DNA of 64,000 bases from Escherichia phage vB_Eco_NicPhage, in the sequence record OY726582; one strand, 5' to 3'. This document shows, in pieces, positions 1,678 through 64,000 of this stretch. The notes beneath the pieces were generated by a model that did no database searches, was not told where the DNA came from, and worked only from the letters and a program-made list of their open reading frames with translations. Numbering within the stretch: position 1 is the first letter of the stretch; each line of letters begins with the position of its first letter. The translations under genes and the position numbers were made by a program.

Positions 1678-2629
1678 ATGATGTTTGGTTATTTTTACAA
1701 CTCGTCGTTCAGGCGATATATCACAATGATGGGCGATTTGTTTTCAAATATCCAAGTTAACCGTCAATTGTCTACAGGCAATAAATTAATTAGAGTTCCT
1801 ATTACGTATGCATCTAAAGAGCACTTTATGATGAAACTTAATAAATGGACCTCTATAAACTCACAAGAAGATGTGGCTAAAGTCGAAACTATTCTACCAC
1901 GTATAAATCTCCAAATGGTGGATTTCGTTTATAACCCAACGTTTAAAACGAATATATTGAATAACTCTCTTTTGAGTAAATCGACTAAGGATATTGTAGA
2001 CCAATACAACCCATCACCAATTAAAATGATTTTTGAACTGAGCATCTTTACTCGTTATGAAGATGATATGTTCCAAATCGTTGAGCAAATTATTCCATAT
2101 TTTCAGCCGCATTTTAATACGACTATGATTGAGCAATATGGGCAGGATATTCCATTTGAAAGGGATATTAAAGTCGTATGGATGGCAGCAGCAATGGATG
2201 AACAAATAGACGGTGATAATTTATCTCGTCGACGTTTAGAGTGGTCATTAACATTTGAAGTAAATGGATGGATGTATCCTCCGGTAGGCGCAGCTGAAGG
2301 CCTTATTAAAACGACTTATCTTGATTTTCATGCTAAACGGTGATAATTTATCTCGTCGACGTTTAGAGTGGTCATTAACATTTGAAGTAAATGGATGGAT
2401 GTATCCTCCGGTAGGCGCAGCTGAAGGCCTTATTAAAACGACTTATCTTGATTTTCATGCTAATGAACGAGACCTTCAAACAGCCGCCAGTGTTTTTGAA
2501 TCAGTTGATACAGAAATTAAACCGAGAGACGTTGAAGCACAAGATTGGAATGGTGAAGTTGAACAAACTTATACTCATGATATTCCAATCCCGTCTCCAC
2601 CAACCCCTCCTGGTCCTAGAAAACAATAA
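1678..2629 (+). pseudogene. 15: tail sheath stabiliser/completion protein gp15, frameshifted by a 127-bp tandem duplication
   Basis: ORF 1678..2343 (221 aa) ends at TGA created at the duplication junction; the rest of the gp15 C-terminus continues in another frame to 2629; removing one copy gives one ~274-aa ORF matching T4 gp15 length. Confidence 0.75.
2210..2463. repeat. perfect direct tandem duplication, 2 x 127 bp
   Basis: 2210-2336 and 2337-2463 are identical base for base; flanking bases differ, so the boundaries are exact. Confidence 0.95.
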
Positions 2630-2638
2630 GAGGTAAAT

Positions 2639-4952
<2,314 letters not shown>

Positions 4953-29055: not shown

Positions 29056-29349
29056 TTATTTACGGAATGAAAGGAATGCTGGTGCTCGGAATGGAGTATC
29101 ATCTTTAGAGTATTTAACTAATACGACCATTGGTACCTCTGTTTCTAAATGACCTGTCACTACACCGATAAAAATTTGATCAGTGTGCTCAGGGTCACGA
29201 AAGTTTTTAAGAGGTTCCATAGCAATATGGAATGCACCTGGGAATACTCGATTCAATTCGTCAATCACAGCTTCGTTAAAAACATCATCCGCTGGGATAG
29301 CATCTTCAACTACTAGTTCTTGACCATTAAAGCGAAGCATAGATTTCAT
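29056..29349 (-). CDS. hypothetical protein (alt.-1-like position)
   Basis: Start placed at MKSMLRF, which has a GAGGA ribosome-binding site; the longer track ORF to 29421 would include the promoter -10 and overlap alt. Confidence 0.5.
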   Translation of the reverse strand: MKSMLRFNGQELVVEDAIPADDVFNEAVIDELNRVFPGAFHIAMEPLKNFRDPEHTDQIFIGVVTGHLETEVPMVVLVKYSKDDTPFRAPAFLSFRK

Positions 29350-29378
29350 AACGTTTTCCTCATGTTGTTGATGGGATG

Positions 29379-29408
29379 ATAGTATCACACATCCGTGTGT
29401 TTGTAAAC
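29379..29408 (-). promoter_or_regulatory. early sigma70-like promoter (-35 GTTTAC, 18 nt, -10 TACTAT)
   Basis: Minus-strand GTTTACaaacacacggatgtgtgaTACTAT, 30 nt upstream of the 29349 ATG. Confidence 0.55.
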
Positions 29409-31739: not shown

Positions 31740-33232
31740 TATAAACCTGTCTGGGACCACGGTCCAAATACGTCTTCAAACGAATCCGCTTCTGTTTTAT
31801 CAAAACGGAACCCTTTAATAATTGGGAGGAAAATACCTACAGTGCCTTCACGTCCTTTAGAATGAACCCAACCATTACATTCACAATCAGCAATACGTCC
31901 AATCAATTTACCTTCACGAGCTTCGGCCATTAATCGTTCACGGTCCAAATCATGTCGCTCATCTAAAGGAATAAGAACCTTTACACCATCAACTGTTTTA
32001 TGAGTTGTATCTTTAAACCCTGAACCACAATCGGTTGTAATACGACGACAACGTGATACGAGTTCGACACCACCTAATTTGTTAGGGTCTTTAGAGTGTT
32101 CATAGTATCCTACAACTTCTAAAGCGATATCAATAACTTCTTTAAATTTAATTAGGTTCTTAGAACGTTTGTTTTCCCAATATGAATCACGGTTTTTAAG
32201 GATAATACCTTCAAGACCTTGGTCAACATATTTTTTATAAACCACTTTAGCTTCGTCAAGATTACGAACTAACTGATTTTCAATTGGCTCAATTCGTTTA
32301 AAGCCTTCAGCCATATTTTCAAGAGCAGCAAAACGAACATCGTATTTCTGACCTTTAATTTTGCCATCAGAATAGACTTCATCTAAAGGAACATAGTCCC
32401 AGGCTTGAAGAACCATACCTTCAGCTTCTTTAGGAGAAATAGTCCCTTGAAGAGATTTATTTGCTAAACCGTTTGAAGTGCTACGGTCCGCAACTTGTAC
32501 TTCTTCGGATTCTTCATTATCACCAAATAAGAACGACAGGTCATTTCCTGAGCTCACAGCCTTTTTAATATCAAATGAATGGTAAACTAATTCACCGTCG
32601 ATTAAAACCCCATTATGGTGTCTTTCACGAGCTTCTTTAGTCATTTCCATTAGTTCATCCGCTAATAGAGTAAGACCATGATATTCGTTGCCGGCACGAG
32701 AAAAGAATTGAACACCATCATCGCGAACTTCAGCGAAACAACGAGCACCATCTGCTTTTAATTGGGCAAATGCGGGCCATTTAATATTTTTAGTAATCAA
32801 TTTCTCGTCATATGCAGATGCTAACATCTGTGGTTGCAATTGAATAAGTCCAGGCCACACCTTATTCGCGATAGACACTGAAGCACCTACTTCAAGGTCG
32901 CGCATCATTACACGACGAAGGACTTCTACATCATCAGGTTTACCATCAGCGATATAACCCATGAGCTCTTTAATTGCAGCATTACCAGTGAGTTTACGAG
33001 TGGCTAATGTGAACTCAATAAAATCCAACATGTCATCTAATTCAAGAAGACCATACGCTTGAGACCTTTCACCTGGTCCTGGCCATTTCTTAATATAATA
33101 CTGGATACCACGTGCATATGTTAAACGATACACACGTTCAAGTAATTTGTTGTCCTTATTTTTCTTAAGGATTTCCTGTTTTGTTTTAGTAGAACCGATC
33201 GCAGCTATTTGGTTTAAAATATCTAAAATCAT
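31739..33232 (-). CDS. 30: ATP-dependent DNA ligase gp30
   Basis: 497-aa ORF with adenylation motif I KADG (QLKADGARCF); T4 gp30-like length and position. Confidence 0.93.
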   Translation of the reverse strand: MILDILNQIAAIGSTKTKQEILKKNKDNKLLERVYRLTYARGIQYYIKKWPGPGERSQAYGLLELDDMLDFIEFTLATRKLTGNAAIKELMGYIADGKPDDVEVLRRVMMRDLEVGASVSIANKVWPGLIQLQPQMLASAYDEKLITKNIKWPAFAQLKADGARCFAEVRDDGVQFFSRAGNEYHGLTLLADELMEMTKEARERHHNGVLIDGELVYHSFDIKKAVSSGNDLSFLFGDNEESEEVQVADRSTSNGLANKSLQGTISPKEAEGMVLQAWDYVPLDEVYSDGKIKGQKYDVRFAALENMAEGFKRIEPIENQLVRNLDEAKVVYKKYVDQGLEGIILKNRDSYWENKRSKNLIKFKEVIDIALEVVGYYEHSKDPNKLGGVELVSRCRRITTDCGSGFKDTTHKTVDGVKVLIPLDERHDLDRERLMAEAREGKLIGRIADCECNGWVHSKGREGTVGIFLPIIKGFRFDKTEADSFEDVFGPWSQTGL

Positions 33233-33498
33233 TTGATGTCCTCGATTTTGGTTACGGTTCTATTATAAGCCACTTCATCTAGAAGCGATTTCAGCGTTTT
33301 CTGATAAGTTGTAATCCATTTACCGAGTCCTTCAACATAGTATTCTGAAATGTAGATGAACCCTTGTTCAACACACTCTTTAAATATTTCTGCGTCTTTT
33401 ACTGAACGAAACAATGGTCAGTCTCGAAAGAACATGTTAACGTGACCGTAGTCACGTGTGGTATTTTTGCCATCTGTAATATCATGAACTACAAACAT
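33229..33498 (-). pseudogene. small early ORF interrupted by an in-frame TGA (opal) codon
   Basis: ATG at 33498, 26 codons, TGA at 33418-33420, then 62 further sense codons in the same frame to 33229; the downstream part has no ATG (track start is TTG). Confidence 0.45.
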
Positions 33499-33507
33499 AA
33501 TTAACCC

Positions 33508-37009: not shown

Positions 37010-37304
37010 TATAAATTCTCTTTAAATGAAAATGCAGGACTTATTGACATTGCCTGCGCAAGCCCTCAAGGGGAACATAGGTTTTGGATATTTAACGACA
37101 GGATAACCATAAACCCGTCATCATACCAACCACGACTTAGACAGATAACCTTTTTCTGACGCGTGATAGTACAAAATACATTCAAGAGGTACACCGTAAA
37201 ACTGCCGGGGCCTTAAAACTATAATGATTCGCAAATCATTAATCAGACAGTTCGACGGCTCCTCGATTTTCTAGCCGCACTTAAGGTAGCGAATCACCTA
37301 AAAC

Positions 37305-43339: not shown

Positions 43340-43827
43340 GTTTGAATAATCTCAATGATTTCGTCTCGGGATAATCCATTGATAAGAACTGTTTTAGGCC
43401 CGTCAGTTTGGATTTTGTATGATTCAAACAATACACACAACTCTTCTGCTGTATGATATGGGCTTGAGATTCCGAGACGGTTGAATTTGTCGGTAAGAGG
43501 GTCGCAAATAATATAGAATTTGATACCTGCGATATGTACGTTTGGTTGACTAATATTAATGAACACATTAGCGTCATATTTAGTCAAATTGTTTTGAAGA
43601 AATTCTACCATAGAATTAACTGCTTCTGGCATCGCTTCGCGTTTCTCTTCAGCGTATCGGGTTGAATACTCTTTTTGTTTTACTTTCTTTTTAAGATTTT
43701 TGGCCAGTGTAACACGTAGGTCAGTAAGATAACCAACTGGACGTCCTTTCTTAAAGACCCGGATTCCGTCAGTTGTGTCTCCAAAAGCGTTTACGATCAT
43801 ATCGTTAGTAATCAATTGCATATTCAT
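43327..43827 (-). CDS. alc: Alc-like protein (host transcription shutoff on cytosine DNA)
   Basis: About 166 aa from MNMQLITN (T4 Alc is 167 aa); position between pseT.3 and rnlA as in T4; start chosen downstream of the promoter. Confidence 0.55.
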   Translation of the reverse strand: MNMQLITNDMIVNAFGDTTDGIRVFKKGRPVGYLTDLRVTLAKNLKKKVKQKEYSTRYAEEKREAMPEAVNSMVEFLQNNLTKYDANVFINISQPNVHIAGIKFYIICDPLTDKFNRLGISSPYHTAEELCVLFESYKIQTDGPKTVLINGLSRDEIIEIIQTCLK

Positions 43828-43856
43828 AATTTTCTCCTCGTGTTGTTGATAAACCC

Positions 43857-43886
43857 ATAGTATCACCATCCTTGGTGTTTGTAAAC
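43857..43886 (-). promoter_or_regulatory. early sigma70-like promoter (-35 GTTTAC, 18 nt, -10 TACTAT)
   Basis: Minus-strand GTTTACaaacaccaaggatggtgaTACTATgggt about 30 nt upstream of the alc ATG. Confidence 0.55.
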
Positions 43887-46740: not shown

Positions 46741-48996
46741 TTAAAGCTTACAAGCAGAACAATCTTCAGCTTTAGGTGTTTCTAATTCATAGTCATCTGT
46801 ACCTGACCCATCACGAGTGTTATGATAGTAGAGGTTTTTTCCGCCAAAGTACCAGAAGTAAAGCAGATCGTCAAGCATTACCGACATTGGCACTTTACCT
46901 TTCTCAAATACTGCAGGGTCATAGTAAGTATTAGCAGAAGCAGATTGGCACACCCATTTCAACATGATAGCAACTTGGGTCAAATAAGGTTTATTACCTT
47001 TCTTAGCAAGTTTCCACGCGTAGTCGTAAAGACTCATGTTATGTTCTATATTAGGAACAACCTGACGGAAGTTGCCTTCTTTAGATTCTTTAATACTCAC
47101 TGGACCGCGTGGGGGCTCAATCCCGTTTGTAGAGTTCGATACTTGACTGCTTGACTCACAAGGCATGAGTGCAGACAACGTTGAGTTACGAATTCCATGT
47201 TCTTTGAGTTCAGCTCGAAGTTCTTCCCAATCACATACGTAGTTCGGGGCTGCGATTTGGTCAATCTTTTTATTGTACCAGTCGATAGGTAATTCGCCTC
47301 TAGACCATTTAGTGTCTGAATAATACTCGCAACATCCTTTTTCTTTGGCGAGTTTGATTGAAGCTTTGATAAGGCCATATTGCAATCTCTCAAACAATTC
47401 ATGAGTCAAATCGTTAGCGTCTTCATATGAAGCGAAGTTAGAAGCTAACCATGCAGCATAGTTCGTAACACCAACACCAAGATTACGACGCTTTTTGGCT
47501 TTTAAAGCTTCTGGAACCGGATAATCTTGATAGTCTAACAGGTTATCAAGTGCACGTACTTGTACTTCAGCAAGTTCATTAATTTTATCTTGGTCTTGCC
47601 AATCAAATTTATCTAACACGAATGCAGATAACGTGCATAAACCAATTTCAGCATCAGGACCATTCACATCATTAGTTGGAATAGCGATTTCACAACATAA
47701 GTTACTCTGACGAATTGGAGCTTTTTCACGAATAAACGGAGTGTAGTTATTCGTGTTATCAACAAACTGTGGATAAATTCGAGCAGTACCAGAGCGTTCA
47801 GTCATGAACAATTCAAAGAGTTCTAGTGCTTTGATTCTTTTCTTTCTGATTGTTGGGTCTTTTTCAGCTTTCTCATAAAGCTCACGGAATTTATCTTGAT
47901 CTTCAAAGAACGAGTAGTATAGTTCGCCTGACATTTCGTGAGGGCTAAATAAAGTAATATAATCATTTTTACCAAGGCGTTCCATCATAAGGTCATTAAT
48001 CTGAATTCCGTAGTCCATATGTCGAATACGGTTTTCATCCACGCCTTTGTTATTTTTCAGAACTAATAGGTTCTCTACTTCTAAGTGCCACATCGGATAA
48101 TACGCTGTAGCAGCACCACCACGAATACCACCTTGAGAACAAGATTTTACTGCAGTTTGGAAATGTTTCCAGAATGGAATAACACCCGTATGTCGAACTT
48201 CACCCATACCGATCTTAGAACCTTCTGCACGAAGCATACCAACGTTTATACCAATACCAGCTCGTTTAGAAATATATTCAATAATTGATGCTGAAGTTTT
48301 GTTAATAGATTTTAACGAATCACCGGCTTCAATAACTACACAACTAGAGAACTGGCGAGTTGGAGTACGAGCACCTGCCATAATTGGGGTTGGCAATGAA
48401 ACTTGATGAGTAGAAACGGCATTATAAAAACGAATAATATGTTTCAAACGGTCATGAGTTTCGTTTTGGTGTAAGGCCATGCCAATAGCCATGATAGCAA
48501 ACTGGGGAGTTTCATAAATCTTCCCAGTTGTTTTATCTTTAACTAGATATTTTTCTTTAAGCTGCATAGCACCAGCATAAGTCAGGTCAAAGTCTCGTTC
48601 ATGTTTAATCTGTGAATCGAGATAAATGATTTCTTCTGCTGAATATTGAGACAACAGCTCAGGGTCATATTTGCCTTCATTAACACAATAAGAAATATGG
48701 TCGATAAAAGCAGGCGGTTCAAACTGCCCATATACATCTTTACGAAGTGCAAACATTAGCCCTTTGGCGGCGACATACTGATAATCAGGTTCTTCGACAG
48801 AAATCGAGTTAGCTGCAACTTTAATACAAATCTTCTGGATATCTTTGGTGCTCATCCCGTCGACAAGATGGGTCTTAATTTCTTCATACAATTCATATGG
48901 GTCAATTTGTGTTCCTTCACATTGCCAAGTTAAGACTTGAATAATTTTCTGTGCATCAAAATTTTGTGATACACCACTGCTCTTAGTTACTTGCAT
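46741..48996 (-). CDS. nrdA: ribonucleotide reductase large subunit NrdA
   Basis: 751-aa ORF (T4 NrdA is 754 aa); C-terminal redox cysteines; synteny. Confidence 0.95.
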   Translation of the reverse strand: MQVTKSSGVSQNFDAQKIIQVLTWQCEGTQIDPYELYEEIKTHLVDGMSTKDIQKICIKVAANSISVEEPDYQYVAAKGLMFALRKDVYGQFEPPAFIDHISYCVNEGKYDPELLSQYSAEEIIYLDSQIKHERDFDLTYAGAMQLKEKYLVKDKTTGKIYETPQFAIMAIGMALHQNETHDRLKHIIRFYNAVSTHQVSLPTPIMAGARTPTRQFSSCVVIEAGDSLKSINKTSASIIEYISKRAGIGINVGMLRAEGSKIGMGEVRHTGVIPFWKHFQTAVKSCSQGGIRGGAATAYYPMWHLEVENLLVLKNNKGVDENRIRHMDYGIQINDLMMERLGKNDYITLFSPHEMSGELYYSFFEDQDKFRELYEKAEKDPTIRKKRIKALELFELFMTERSGTARIYPQFVDNTNNYTPFIREKAPIRQSNLCCEIAIPTNDVNGPDAEIGLCTLSAFVLDKFDWQDQDKINELAEVQVRALDNLLDYQDYPVPEALKAKKRRNLGVGVTNYAAWLASNFASYEDANDLTHELFERLQYGLIKASIKLAKEKGCCEYYSDTKWSRGELPIDWYNKKIDQIAAPNYVCDWEELRAELKEHGIRNSTLSALMPCESSSQVSNSTNGIEPPRGPVSIKESKEGNFRQVVPNIEHNMSLYDYAWKLAKKGNKPYLTQVAIMLKWVCQSASANTYYDPAVFEKGKVPMSVMLDDLLYFWYFGGKNLYYHNTRDGSGTDDYELETPKAEDCSACKL

Positions 48997-49292
48997 ATGT
49001 CCTCTATATTAAATTCGTCTTTAAAAAGTTTATTAACCACTAGAGCTATTATATCACCATGACAGGCTTTTGGTTTACATGTGCATCCCAGACGCATACC
49101 ACGTAAAGGTTCTAGATGAGCTTTTGTGATTTCTCCACACTTAATTCTCTTAATAAAATCCTTTTTGAAAAGCTCAATAGCTTCTTCTCGGGAAGAGGCA
49201 TCCTTGCCTACATAATTTCCCCAGAATGTGCCACGATGAATATTAACATCAAAATCGGATTTATATTTATTCACAACGCGGCACATTTTCAT
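48987..49292 (-). CDS. hypothetical protein (nrdA.1-like position)
   Basis: 101-aa ORF between td and nrdA. Confidence 0.5.
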   Translation of the reverse strand: MKMCRVVNKYKSDFDVNIHRGTFWGNYVGKDASSREEAIELFKKDFIKRIKCGEITKAHLEPLRGMRLGCTCKPKACHGDIIALVVNKLFKDEFNIEDICK

Positions 49293-51546: not shown

Positions 51547-51939
51547 CTACTTTTTAAAAGTTTTTTGCAAAAGTTTGATGATTTCGTCGACGTTAGTTTC
51601 ATCTACGATACAATGGATTTTTGTTACACCTAAAGTTATACCTTCGTTAGTAGGTTGAGGCTTTACTAAATCTACCTCAGTAAAGTATTTGAACTCGTCA
51701 GGATAAATCTCAAAATAAGTTTCAATTTCATCACCGGCAGAACATACAGTACCATCTTCCATAGTTACACTTACTACGTTTGACGTATCGCTATCATAAT
51801 CAGGTTCCATTCCGTTTACAACAAAACTAGGCCCGTGGAGTTCAATCAATTTTAACATCTTAGCGTTATTATGTGGTGCTTCTTGAACAAAGTCGTCTTT
51901 AAATAAAGGGTTAATGATATAAGATTTTCCGATTTCCAT
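51547..51939 (-). CDS. hypothetical protein (frd.3-like position)
   Basis: 130-aa ORF preceded by an early promoter. Confidence 0.5.
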   Translation of the reverse strand: MEIGKSYIINPLFKDDFVQEAPHNNAKMLKLIELHGPSFVVNGMEPDYDSDTSNVVSVTMEDGTVCSAGDEIETYFEIYPDEFKYFTEVDLVKPQPTNEGITLGVTKIHCIVDETNVDEIIKLLQKTFKK

Positions 51940-51968
51940 TTTGATTTCCTCATGTTGTTAATAGGTCT

Positions 51969-51997
51969 ATACTAACACATCCAGGGAAGAAGTAAAC
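51969..51997 (-). promoter_or_regulatory. early sigma70-like promoter (-35 GTTTAC, 17 nt, -10 TAGTAT)
   Basis: Minus-strand GTTTACttcttccctggatgtgtTAGTATagac, about 30 nt upstream of the 51939 ATG. Confidence 0.55.
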
Positions 51998-61088: not shown

Positions 61089-64000
61089 ATGGCTACATTA
61101 AAACAGATACAATTTAAAAGAAGCAAAGTAGCAGGAGTTAATCCTACTGCAGCACAATTAGCCGAAGGCGAATTAGCGATAAACTTAAAAGATCGAACTC
61201 TTTTTACTAAAGATGACCTCGGTAATATCATTGACTTAAGCATTTCTGCTGGCGGTAATATCAGTGGAAACGTAACTATTGATGGAACTTTACGCGTCAA
61301 TGGACCAATAAACAATTTTGGAAATTTTTCCACAAGTGGCCAGATTACCTCTGGTGGTAGTATTTCAGCTCAAGTTTTTAGAGCATTGCAAGGTTCGTTT
61401 TATACAAGAGCTTCAACCGGTGAAACAGCAAATGCTCATTTATGGTTTGAAAATGCTGATGGCACTGAACGAGGCGTTATGTATGCCCGTCCTCAAACTA
61501 CAACTGATGGTGAAATACGCCTTAGGGTTAGACAAGGAACAGGAAGCACTACTAATAGTGAATTCTATTTCCGCTCTATAAATGGAGGCGAATTTCAGGC
61601 TAACCGTATTTTAGCATCAGATTCGTTAGTAACTAAACGCATTGCAGTTGATACAGTTATTCACGGTGGCAAAGCCTTTGGTGTATATGATACAGATTCA
61701 TTAGTTAACTATGTATACCCAGGCACCGGTGAAACGAATGGTGTAAACTATCTTCGTAGAGTTCGTGCCAAATCCGGTGGCACTATGTGGCATGAGCTTT
61801 GTACTGCTCAATTAGGCCAAGCTGATGAAATGTCTTGGTGGACAGGTAATACTCCACAGTCAAAACAGTATGGTATTCGTAATGATGGTCGAATGGCTGG
61901 CCGTAATAGCCTTGCATTAGGTACATTCACTACAGATTTCCCGTCTAGCGATTATGGTAACGTCGGTGTAATGGGCGATAAGTATCTTGTTCTCGGTGAC
62001 ACTGTAACAGGTCTGAAATATATTAAACAAGGAGTTTATGATTTAGTTGGCGGTGGTTATTCTGTTGCTTCTATTACTCCTGACAGTTTCCGTAGTACTC
62101 GTAAAGCGTTATTTGGACGTTCAGAAGACCAAGGCACTACATGGATTATGCCTGGTACTAATGCTGCATTTTTATCAGTCCAAACTCAAGCGGATGTGAA
62201 TAACGCAGGGGACGGTCGGACGCATATTGGCTATAACTCAGGCGGAAAAATGAACCACTATTTCCGTGGTAAAGGCAAAACTAATATTAATACTCAAGAA
62301 GGCATGGAAGTTAACCCGGGTATTTTGAAATTGGTAACTGGCTCTAATAATGTAATGTTTTATGCTGATGGCGGTATTACATCTGTTAAGCAGCTTTCAA
62401 TATATAATGGCATATATTTAGCAGCTAATAATTCTACTGCTGGGCTAACATTCGCTCCAACTACTACAATTGATGGCACTAAGCAAATTTTGTGGGAAGG
62501 CGGTACTCGTGCTGGTCAGAATAAAAGCTATGTAACTGTTAAAGCATGGGGTAATTCATTTAACGCATCCGGCGATCGTAATCGTGAAACTGTATTTGAA
62601 GTTAGTGACGGGCAAGGATATTATTTTTATTCACAGCGTGTGGCTCCAAGTGGCTCTGAAACTACTGGGCCTGTTGTAACCCAGTTCAATGGACAAGTTA
62701 ATGCTAGAGGAAGTATTATTACTGACGGAAGTCTTAGAGTTAACGGATTAAGTACATTATCCGGACAAGTTACTATGGATAACGGGCTTGTTTTATCCGG
62801 CGGTGGTTCTATTACCGGTCAAGTTAAAATCGGTAATACCGCAGATGCTTTCCGTATTTACAATGCTGAATATGGAGCTATTTTCCGTCGTTCTGAAGCG
62901 TCTTTGCATATTATACCTACACTTAAAGATGCAGGTGAAAGTGGTGGTATTTCTAACCTTCGCCCATTGAGTGTTTCTCTTAACAACGGTATGGTTCAAA
63001 TGCGCCATTCTGTTACGTTAGGTGATGATGGTGCTGGCGGTAATATGGTGACCGTTGATAATGATAATAAACTTGTTGTTATAACTAGTCATAGTCGCAT
63101 TTCTCCTAATTACCGTATGCAATTAGGACAATCGGCATATATCGACGCTGAATGTACTGATACTGCACGACCTGCTGGAGCCGGTTCTTTTGCTTCACAA
63201 AATAATGAAAACGTTCGTGCTCCGTTCTATATGAATATTGATAGAACAGATACAAGCACTTATGTTCCTATTGTGAAACAAAGATACGTTCAAAATAATA
63301 GTTGCTATTCTATTGGTACTTTAATTAATGGTGGTAACTTTAGAGTTCATTATCACGAAGGTGGTGACGGCGTTTCTACTGGTGCTGTTATAAAGGATCT
63401 TGGATGGGAATTTAATAAAAACGGTGATTTTTATTCTCCTGGTAAATTAGGCGCTGGTAATGTTCGTATTGGTACTGATGGTAATATCACTGGTGGTTCT
63501 GGTAATTTTGCTAACTTGAATACAACAATAAATAACCTTAAGACGGATATTGTCTCAAGTTATCCTATTGGTGCTCCGATTCCTTGGCCTACTGATACAC
63601 CTCCTGAAGGTTATGCCATAATGGAAGGTCAAACATTTGATGCTGACTTGTATCCTAAGTTAGCTGCGGTGTATCCTTCCGGCACTCTGCCTGATATGCG
63701 TGGTCAAACTATCAAGGGTAAACCATCTGGGCGTGCTGTATTGAGTACAGAAGCAGACGGTGTTAAGTCACATAGCCATAGTGCAAGTGCATCAAGCACA
63801 GATTTGGGTACTAAGACCACTTCTAGTTTTGATTACGGTAGCAAAACGACTTCAAGCTTTGATTATGGTACTAAGACCAGTAATACCACTGGCAACCATA
63901 ACCATACAGTGAGTGGTAATACTAGTGCCGCTGGTAACCACCAGCACTCACAGACAGGCCCAAGAGGACCTAGTAACCAACCGACCGGGATATTTCCTAA
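61089..64000 (+). CDS. 37: long tail fibre distal subunit gp37 (receptor-binding), 3' end beyond window
   Basis: Frame open from ATG at 61089 ([43 protein letters not shown]) at least through 63837 where I checked it; His-x-His motifs (NHNH, NHQH) near the window end. Confidence 0.9.

Follow-up and report, generated by a model that had tools for sequence, protein, structure and literature searches.

Tail terminator and assembly overlaps in known systems

T4-like genomes are circularly permuted, and terminal redundancy of the T4 type measures kilobases. Tandem duplications arise in T4; the spontaneous ones known from classical genetics have no preferred length, usually involve short homologies and persist only if they are tolerated or selected. 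Illegitimate recombination can also leave blunt junctions. The in-situ structure of T4 assigns residues 209–272 of gp15 to a C-terminal domain, which is paired with the top ring formed by the sheath protein gp18, and its authors call this domain essential for the interaction with the sheath (PMC12929629). Phage-genome papers document a contig-end overlap of 127 bases, the largest k-mer of SPAdes, and note that the 127-bp SPAdes end overlap of circular or circularly permuted contigs needs manual trimming; in one phage assembly the last 127 bp were cut off as a k-mer artefact (PMC12007190). According to a 2026 review of the INPHARED database, SPAdes yields artefactual terminal repeats in deposited genomes.

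Structure of the gene 15 locus

The whole stretch of DNA analysed here (64,000 nucleotides, the window) is a slice of the genome of a Mosigvirus (T4-like) phage. The local order is gp13 (cut by the start of the window), a 211-aa endonuclease-like ORF, gp14, gp15, gp16, gp17 and gp18. The gene 15 locus (1678–2629, + strand) lies between gp14, the neck protein (864–1628), and gp16, the small terminase (2639–3133), both identified from the ORF list and the annotation of relatives.

Within this locus, two head-to-tail copies of a 127-bp unit were found on the + strand, at 2210–2336 (copy 1, corresponding to native gp15 codons about 178–219) and at 2337–2463 (copy 2). The copies are identical at each base, and TRF returned a period of 127, 2.0 copies, 100% matches and a score of 508. 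The period-127 identity (base i equal to base i+127) spans exactly 127 positions, and the microhomology at the boundaries is 0 bp on both sides. The duplication is the sole long perfect direct repeat in the window, and a perfect repeat of 127 bases cannot arise by chance. Between 2336 and 2337 (+ strand) the copies meet in a novel junction, where CATGCTAA is followed directly by ACGGTGAT; the 40-mer centred on it consists of TATCTTGATTTTCATGCTAA joined to ACGGTGATAATTTATCTCGT.

As written, gene 15 reads as two ORFs on the + strand, each of which matches Pfam PF16724 (T4-gp15_tss). The first (1678–2343) is a shortened gp15 of 221 aa, made up of native residues 1–219 followed by Lys-Arg. Its frame is shifted at the junction and stops after 221 codons at a TGA (2341–2343); the product covers profile positions 1–209 of 245 (E = 2e-86). 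The second ORF (2321–2629) holds native residues about 178–274, with a length of 102 aa when read from TTG 2321 and 99 aa when read from ATG 2330, and covers profile positions 167–242 (E = 6e-23). A 42-residue peptide, GDNLSRRRLEWSLTFEVNGWMYPPVGAAEGLIKTTYLDFHA, is common to both. The first ORF is preceded by an AGGAG Shine-Dalgarno motif; such a motif was looked for before the second ORF and none was found, whereas all neighbouring genes have one. A member of the gp15 family is expected to have one uninterrupted ORF of about 272–274 aa, with the C-terminal sheath-binding domain in it; the gene as written lacks this arrangement, and only because of the duplication. The preliminary description had reported the identical tandem copies, the junction TGA that ends the frame from 1678 after 221 codons, the continuation of the C-terminal part in another frame to 2629 and a peptide present in both ORFs; base comparison and TRF, the ORF list and the two translations bear these points out.

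The consequences for gp15 as written would be severe. The 221-aa product ends at T4-equivalent residue 218, and T4-equivalent residues 219–272 are lost, which amounts to about 54 of the 64 residues of the C-terminal domain. Since most of the sheath-capping domain is thereby missing, a plaque-forming phage with this lesion as its consensus genome is unlikely.

Gp15 with one copy removed

Deleting one copy of the unit yielded an 825-nt gene with one ORF of 274 aa. The repaired protein is collinear with T4 gp15 (PDB 3J2M, 4HUD) over residues 2–272 (E = 3.8e-146), and the gene occupies the position between gp14 and gp16 that it has in T4-like phages. By sequence and position, the gene can be assigned to the T4 gp15 tail-terminator family (PF16724). 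Both the identification of the locus as gene 15 and the restoration of a T4-sized protein of some 274 aa upon removal of one copy had been proposed before, and they agree with this alignment and with the repaired ORF.

The endonuclease-like ORF of the same neighbourhood (211 aa, 242–877, + strand) is free-standing and resembles homing endonucleases. It lies between gp13 and gp14, overlapping the start of gp14 by 14 nt, and corresponds to an insertion of 613 bp (250–862) relative to NBG1 and APCEc01. An identical protein is found in phiEC1, RPN187 and many metagenome and Logan contigs; with its absence from NBG1 and APCEc01, this indicates that the presence of the ORF is polymorphic in the genus. 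In Pfam, the ORF gave weak matches only, to the I-TevI DNA-binding domain and to NUMOD3, both below the cut-off.

Search for the duplication in relatives and collections

A 1,161-base query across the locus matched 651 phage records, and the best 40 of these span 1,034 bases, that is, one copy of the unit. With a 100-base query centred on the junction, 150 records were matched, solely as two separate 50-base halves, which in those records are the opposite ends of one 127-bp unit. At an E-value limit of 1e-25, set so that only contiguous junction matches would be admitted, no such match was present in 50,697 phage records. An exact search with a 44-base junction string gave no hit in IMG/VR, JGI metagenome contigs or GTDB genome contigs; the novel junction is thus missing from all public collections searched. 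Likewise, an exact look-up of the split products (221-, 220-, 102- and 99-aa versions) found none in an index of 153 billion genes.

The 20 closest independent loci were reached by searching for exact copies of the nearby endonuclease and gp17 proteins; they lie in NCBI genomes, ENA metagenome assemblies and Logan assemblies of sequencing runs. Each of the 20 carries a gp15 of 273 aa, and gapless alignment with the one-copy gene gives 99.0–99.9% identity. Logan SRR11808698, the closest of these loci, has 99.34% identity to the one-copy window over 13,000 gapless bases; its gp15 differs by 1 base, and it has a single exact copy of the 127-base unit, as is the case in the closest relatives generally. 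It was considered as a possible sequence of the same strain; at 99.34% identity it was judged a near relative instead. Among the relatives and collections searched, the duplication is private to this sequence.

Quality of the rest of the window

The window is collinear with phage NBG1 at 96–98% identity. Small indels relative to NBG1 occur as compensating pairs in divergent stretches, as multiples of three, or in intergenic homopolymers. In this comparison gp15 is the only conserved gene, among 98 ORFs, that is broken by a frameshift. A generally low-quality, error-prone assembly was rejected as the origin of the duplication, because the indels are of these kinds and no other conserved gene is frameshifted.

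One further apparent defect was seen. An in-frame stop at 33418–33420 (− strand) replaces Trp27 of an 89-aa hypothetical protein (ORF region 33232–33507) that adjoins the DNA ligase gene and is intact in NBG1 (vBEcoMNBG1_205). Either a true nonsense mutation in a small accessory gene or an erroneous base could explain it.

The window also differs from NBG1 in gene content. An extra ORF of 101 aa (48987–49292, − strand; MKMCRVVNKYKSDF...CHGDII...) lies just upstream of the gene for the ribonucleotide reductase alpha subunit, at a site where NBG1 has only about 86 bp, and represents a small accessory-gene insertion. Between conserved blocks, about 136 bp at 37170–37304 have no NBG1 counterpart (about 4 bp there). 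The segment 61232–64000, homologous to the tail-fibre block of NBG1 (locus tags 249–251), shows 86–93% identity, as against 96–98% elsewhere, and includes an unaligned stretch at 61233–62468; this divergence is as expected for host-range determinants. Finally, a family of 46-nt direct repeats, with 74% identity between copies, was found at 29344–29389, 43822–43867 and 51934–51979. These repeats end in CCTCAT/GAAA-type translation-start regions of minus-strand genes, and the family may be a conserved promoter or translation-initiation element.

Origin of the duplication

The duplication is very probably a finishing artefact of de Bruijn-graph assembly and not phage DNA; we put the probability of this reading at about 0.8. 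Judged from the length of the repeat alone, the assembler was almost certainly SPAdes with a final k of 127. Because T4-like genomes are circularly permuted, their short reads would assemble into a loop, which SPAdes would output as a linear contig with its first 127 bases repeated as its last 127; contigs adjacent in one graph would likewise share an overlap of k bases. If such ends, or two such contigs, were joined untrimmed and the sequence was afterwards rotated so as to begin at a conventional start, the overlap would become internal, as two perfect head-to-tail copies of exactly k bases whose boundaries are arbitrary. We infer this step from end overlap to internal repeat for the present sequence. 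The contig end would have fallen within gene 15 by chance, and its position there would produce the apparent frameshift in the record.

In every feature that sequence can test, the duplication fits the documented SPAdes overlap artefact. Its length equals the maximum k of SPAdes, there are two copies only, their identity is 100% and there is no microhomology. The combination of exactly 127 bp, 2.0 perfect copies and 0 bp of microhomology is the hallmark of an overlap with k = 127 and strongly favours an assembly artefact, which is favoured as well by the absence of the junction from the relatives and collections searched, by a window that is otherwise clean and by the expected loss of gp15 function. 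A point on the other side is that the window is not wholly free of other apparent defects, given that a small non-essential ORF contains a single in-frame stop. The preliminary description had named four possible causes. An assembly artefact was among them and is now the strongly favoured one; no choice had been made between the four, and the clue offered by the SPAdes k-mer had been missed.

A real tandem duplication of 127 bp that arose very recently in gene 15 of the sequenced stock, as a defective or sub-population genotype, would also account for a repeat that is, after all, present in the sequence as given, and the zero divergence between the copies fits a recent event. Such a genome could persist with the help of co-infecting wild type, or could be a mutant in which recombination between the copies readily brings about reversion. 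The length could then be a coincidence, but a genuine event offers no reason for exactly 127 bp, the value of an assembler constant. The end points have 0 bp of microhomology, where short homology is typical though not obligatory; most of the sheath-capping domain of the essential gp15 is lost, which is unexpected in the consensus of a plaque-purified lysate; and the duplication is missing from all relatives and collections searched. We therefore regard a genuine duplication as unlikely, and the earlier headline, that the repeat 'frameshifts essential tail gene 15', is unsupported as probable biology. Perfect identity and blunt boundaries would also result from a copy-paste error, so that a sequence edit unrelated to the assembler has to be weighed, either as an engineered construct or as an editing or concatenation error in the preparation of the record or the window. 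The junction carries no vector, scar, restriction-site or marker sequence, an engineered gp15 frameshift would lack a rationale, and the value of 127 is specifically explained by the assembler; such an edit is very unlikely.

In principle, the two ORFs could form a native, functional split terminator, with an N-terminal ring part and a C-terminal sheath-binding part, the latter translated by reinitiation at ATG 2330. Both ORFs are open, this ATG precedes the TGA at 2341 by 12 nt and adjoins the stop of the first ORF, and each fragment matches its own part of PF16724. The gene is intact, however, in every relative examined, which refutes the native split raised earlier as an alternative; the second ORF is without a Shine-Dalgarno motif, and both pieces would carry the 42 duplicated residues, unlike in evolved split genes. 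Moreover, because the copies are identical, there has been no time for selection on a split gp15, and we consider a native split scarcely credible. Very improbable, too, is that the duplication is physically present and the phage survives with gp15 as a 221-aa ring core plus a reinitiated C-terminal piece of ~99 aa, or that this lineage can do without the C-terminal domain. Programmed frameshifting was rejected, as the relatives are all intact and the copies identical. A real terminal redundancy or pac-related repeat was rejected as well; the repeat lies within a structural gene, whereas redundancy of the T4 type is kilobases long.

Implications

The duplication carries little biological weight, because gp15 of this phage is very probably ordinary and intact. 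The untrimmed assembler overlap would have made two false ORFs out of an essential structural gene, added 127 bp to the genome length and introduced a false 'tandem repeat'. An artefact of this kind would give misleading results in annotation, in pangenome and pseudogene counts, and in the safety review of therapeutic phages. The value of the duplication is then that of a quality flag for the source record, and phage records could be checked at little cost by scanning them for perfect internal tandem repeats with a length of 127, 99, 77 or 55 (SPAdes) or 141 (MEGAHIT). Should the duplication be real, it would provide a test of whether the C-terminal domain of gp15 acts in trans or is dispensable.

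Comparison with known systems

The repaired gp15 resembles that of T4 in its collinearity and in the gp14-gp15-gp16 position, and the one-copy gene is 99–99.9% identical in DNA to the gp15 genes of Mosigvirus. As written, the locus differs from T4 in that the frame is broken after residue 219, so that the ring core and the greater part of the C-terminal sheath-binding domain are separated. With spontaneous T4 tandem duplications the repeat shares the head-to-tail arrangement, the T4-like genome and the identity of the copies; in contrast to them, its length equals an assembler constant, its boundaries have 0 bp of microhomology and it disrupts an essential gene. The 127-bp terminal overlap of SPAdes agrees with it in length, perfect identity, number of copies, arbitrary blunt boundaries and a type of genome that would be expected to assemble as a circle. 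The one difference is in placement: the copies of the usual overlap lie at the two ends of a contig, whereas those found here are adjacent and internal, and would have come to lie so through an additional, untrimmed step of joining or rotation.
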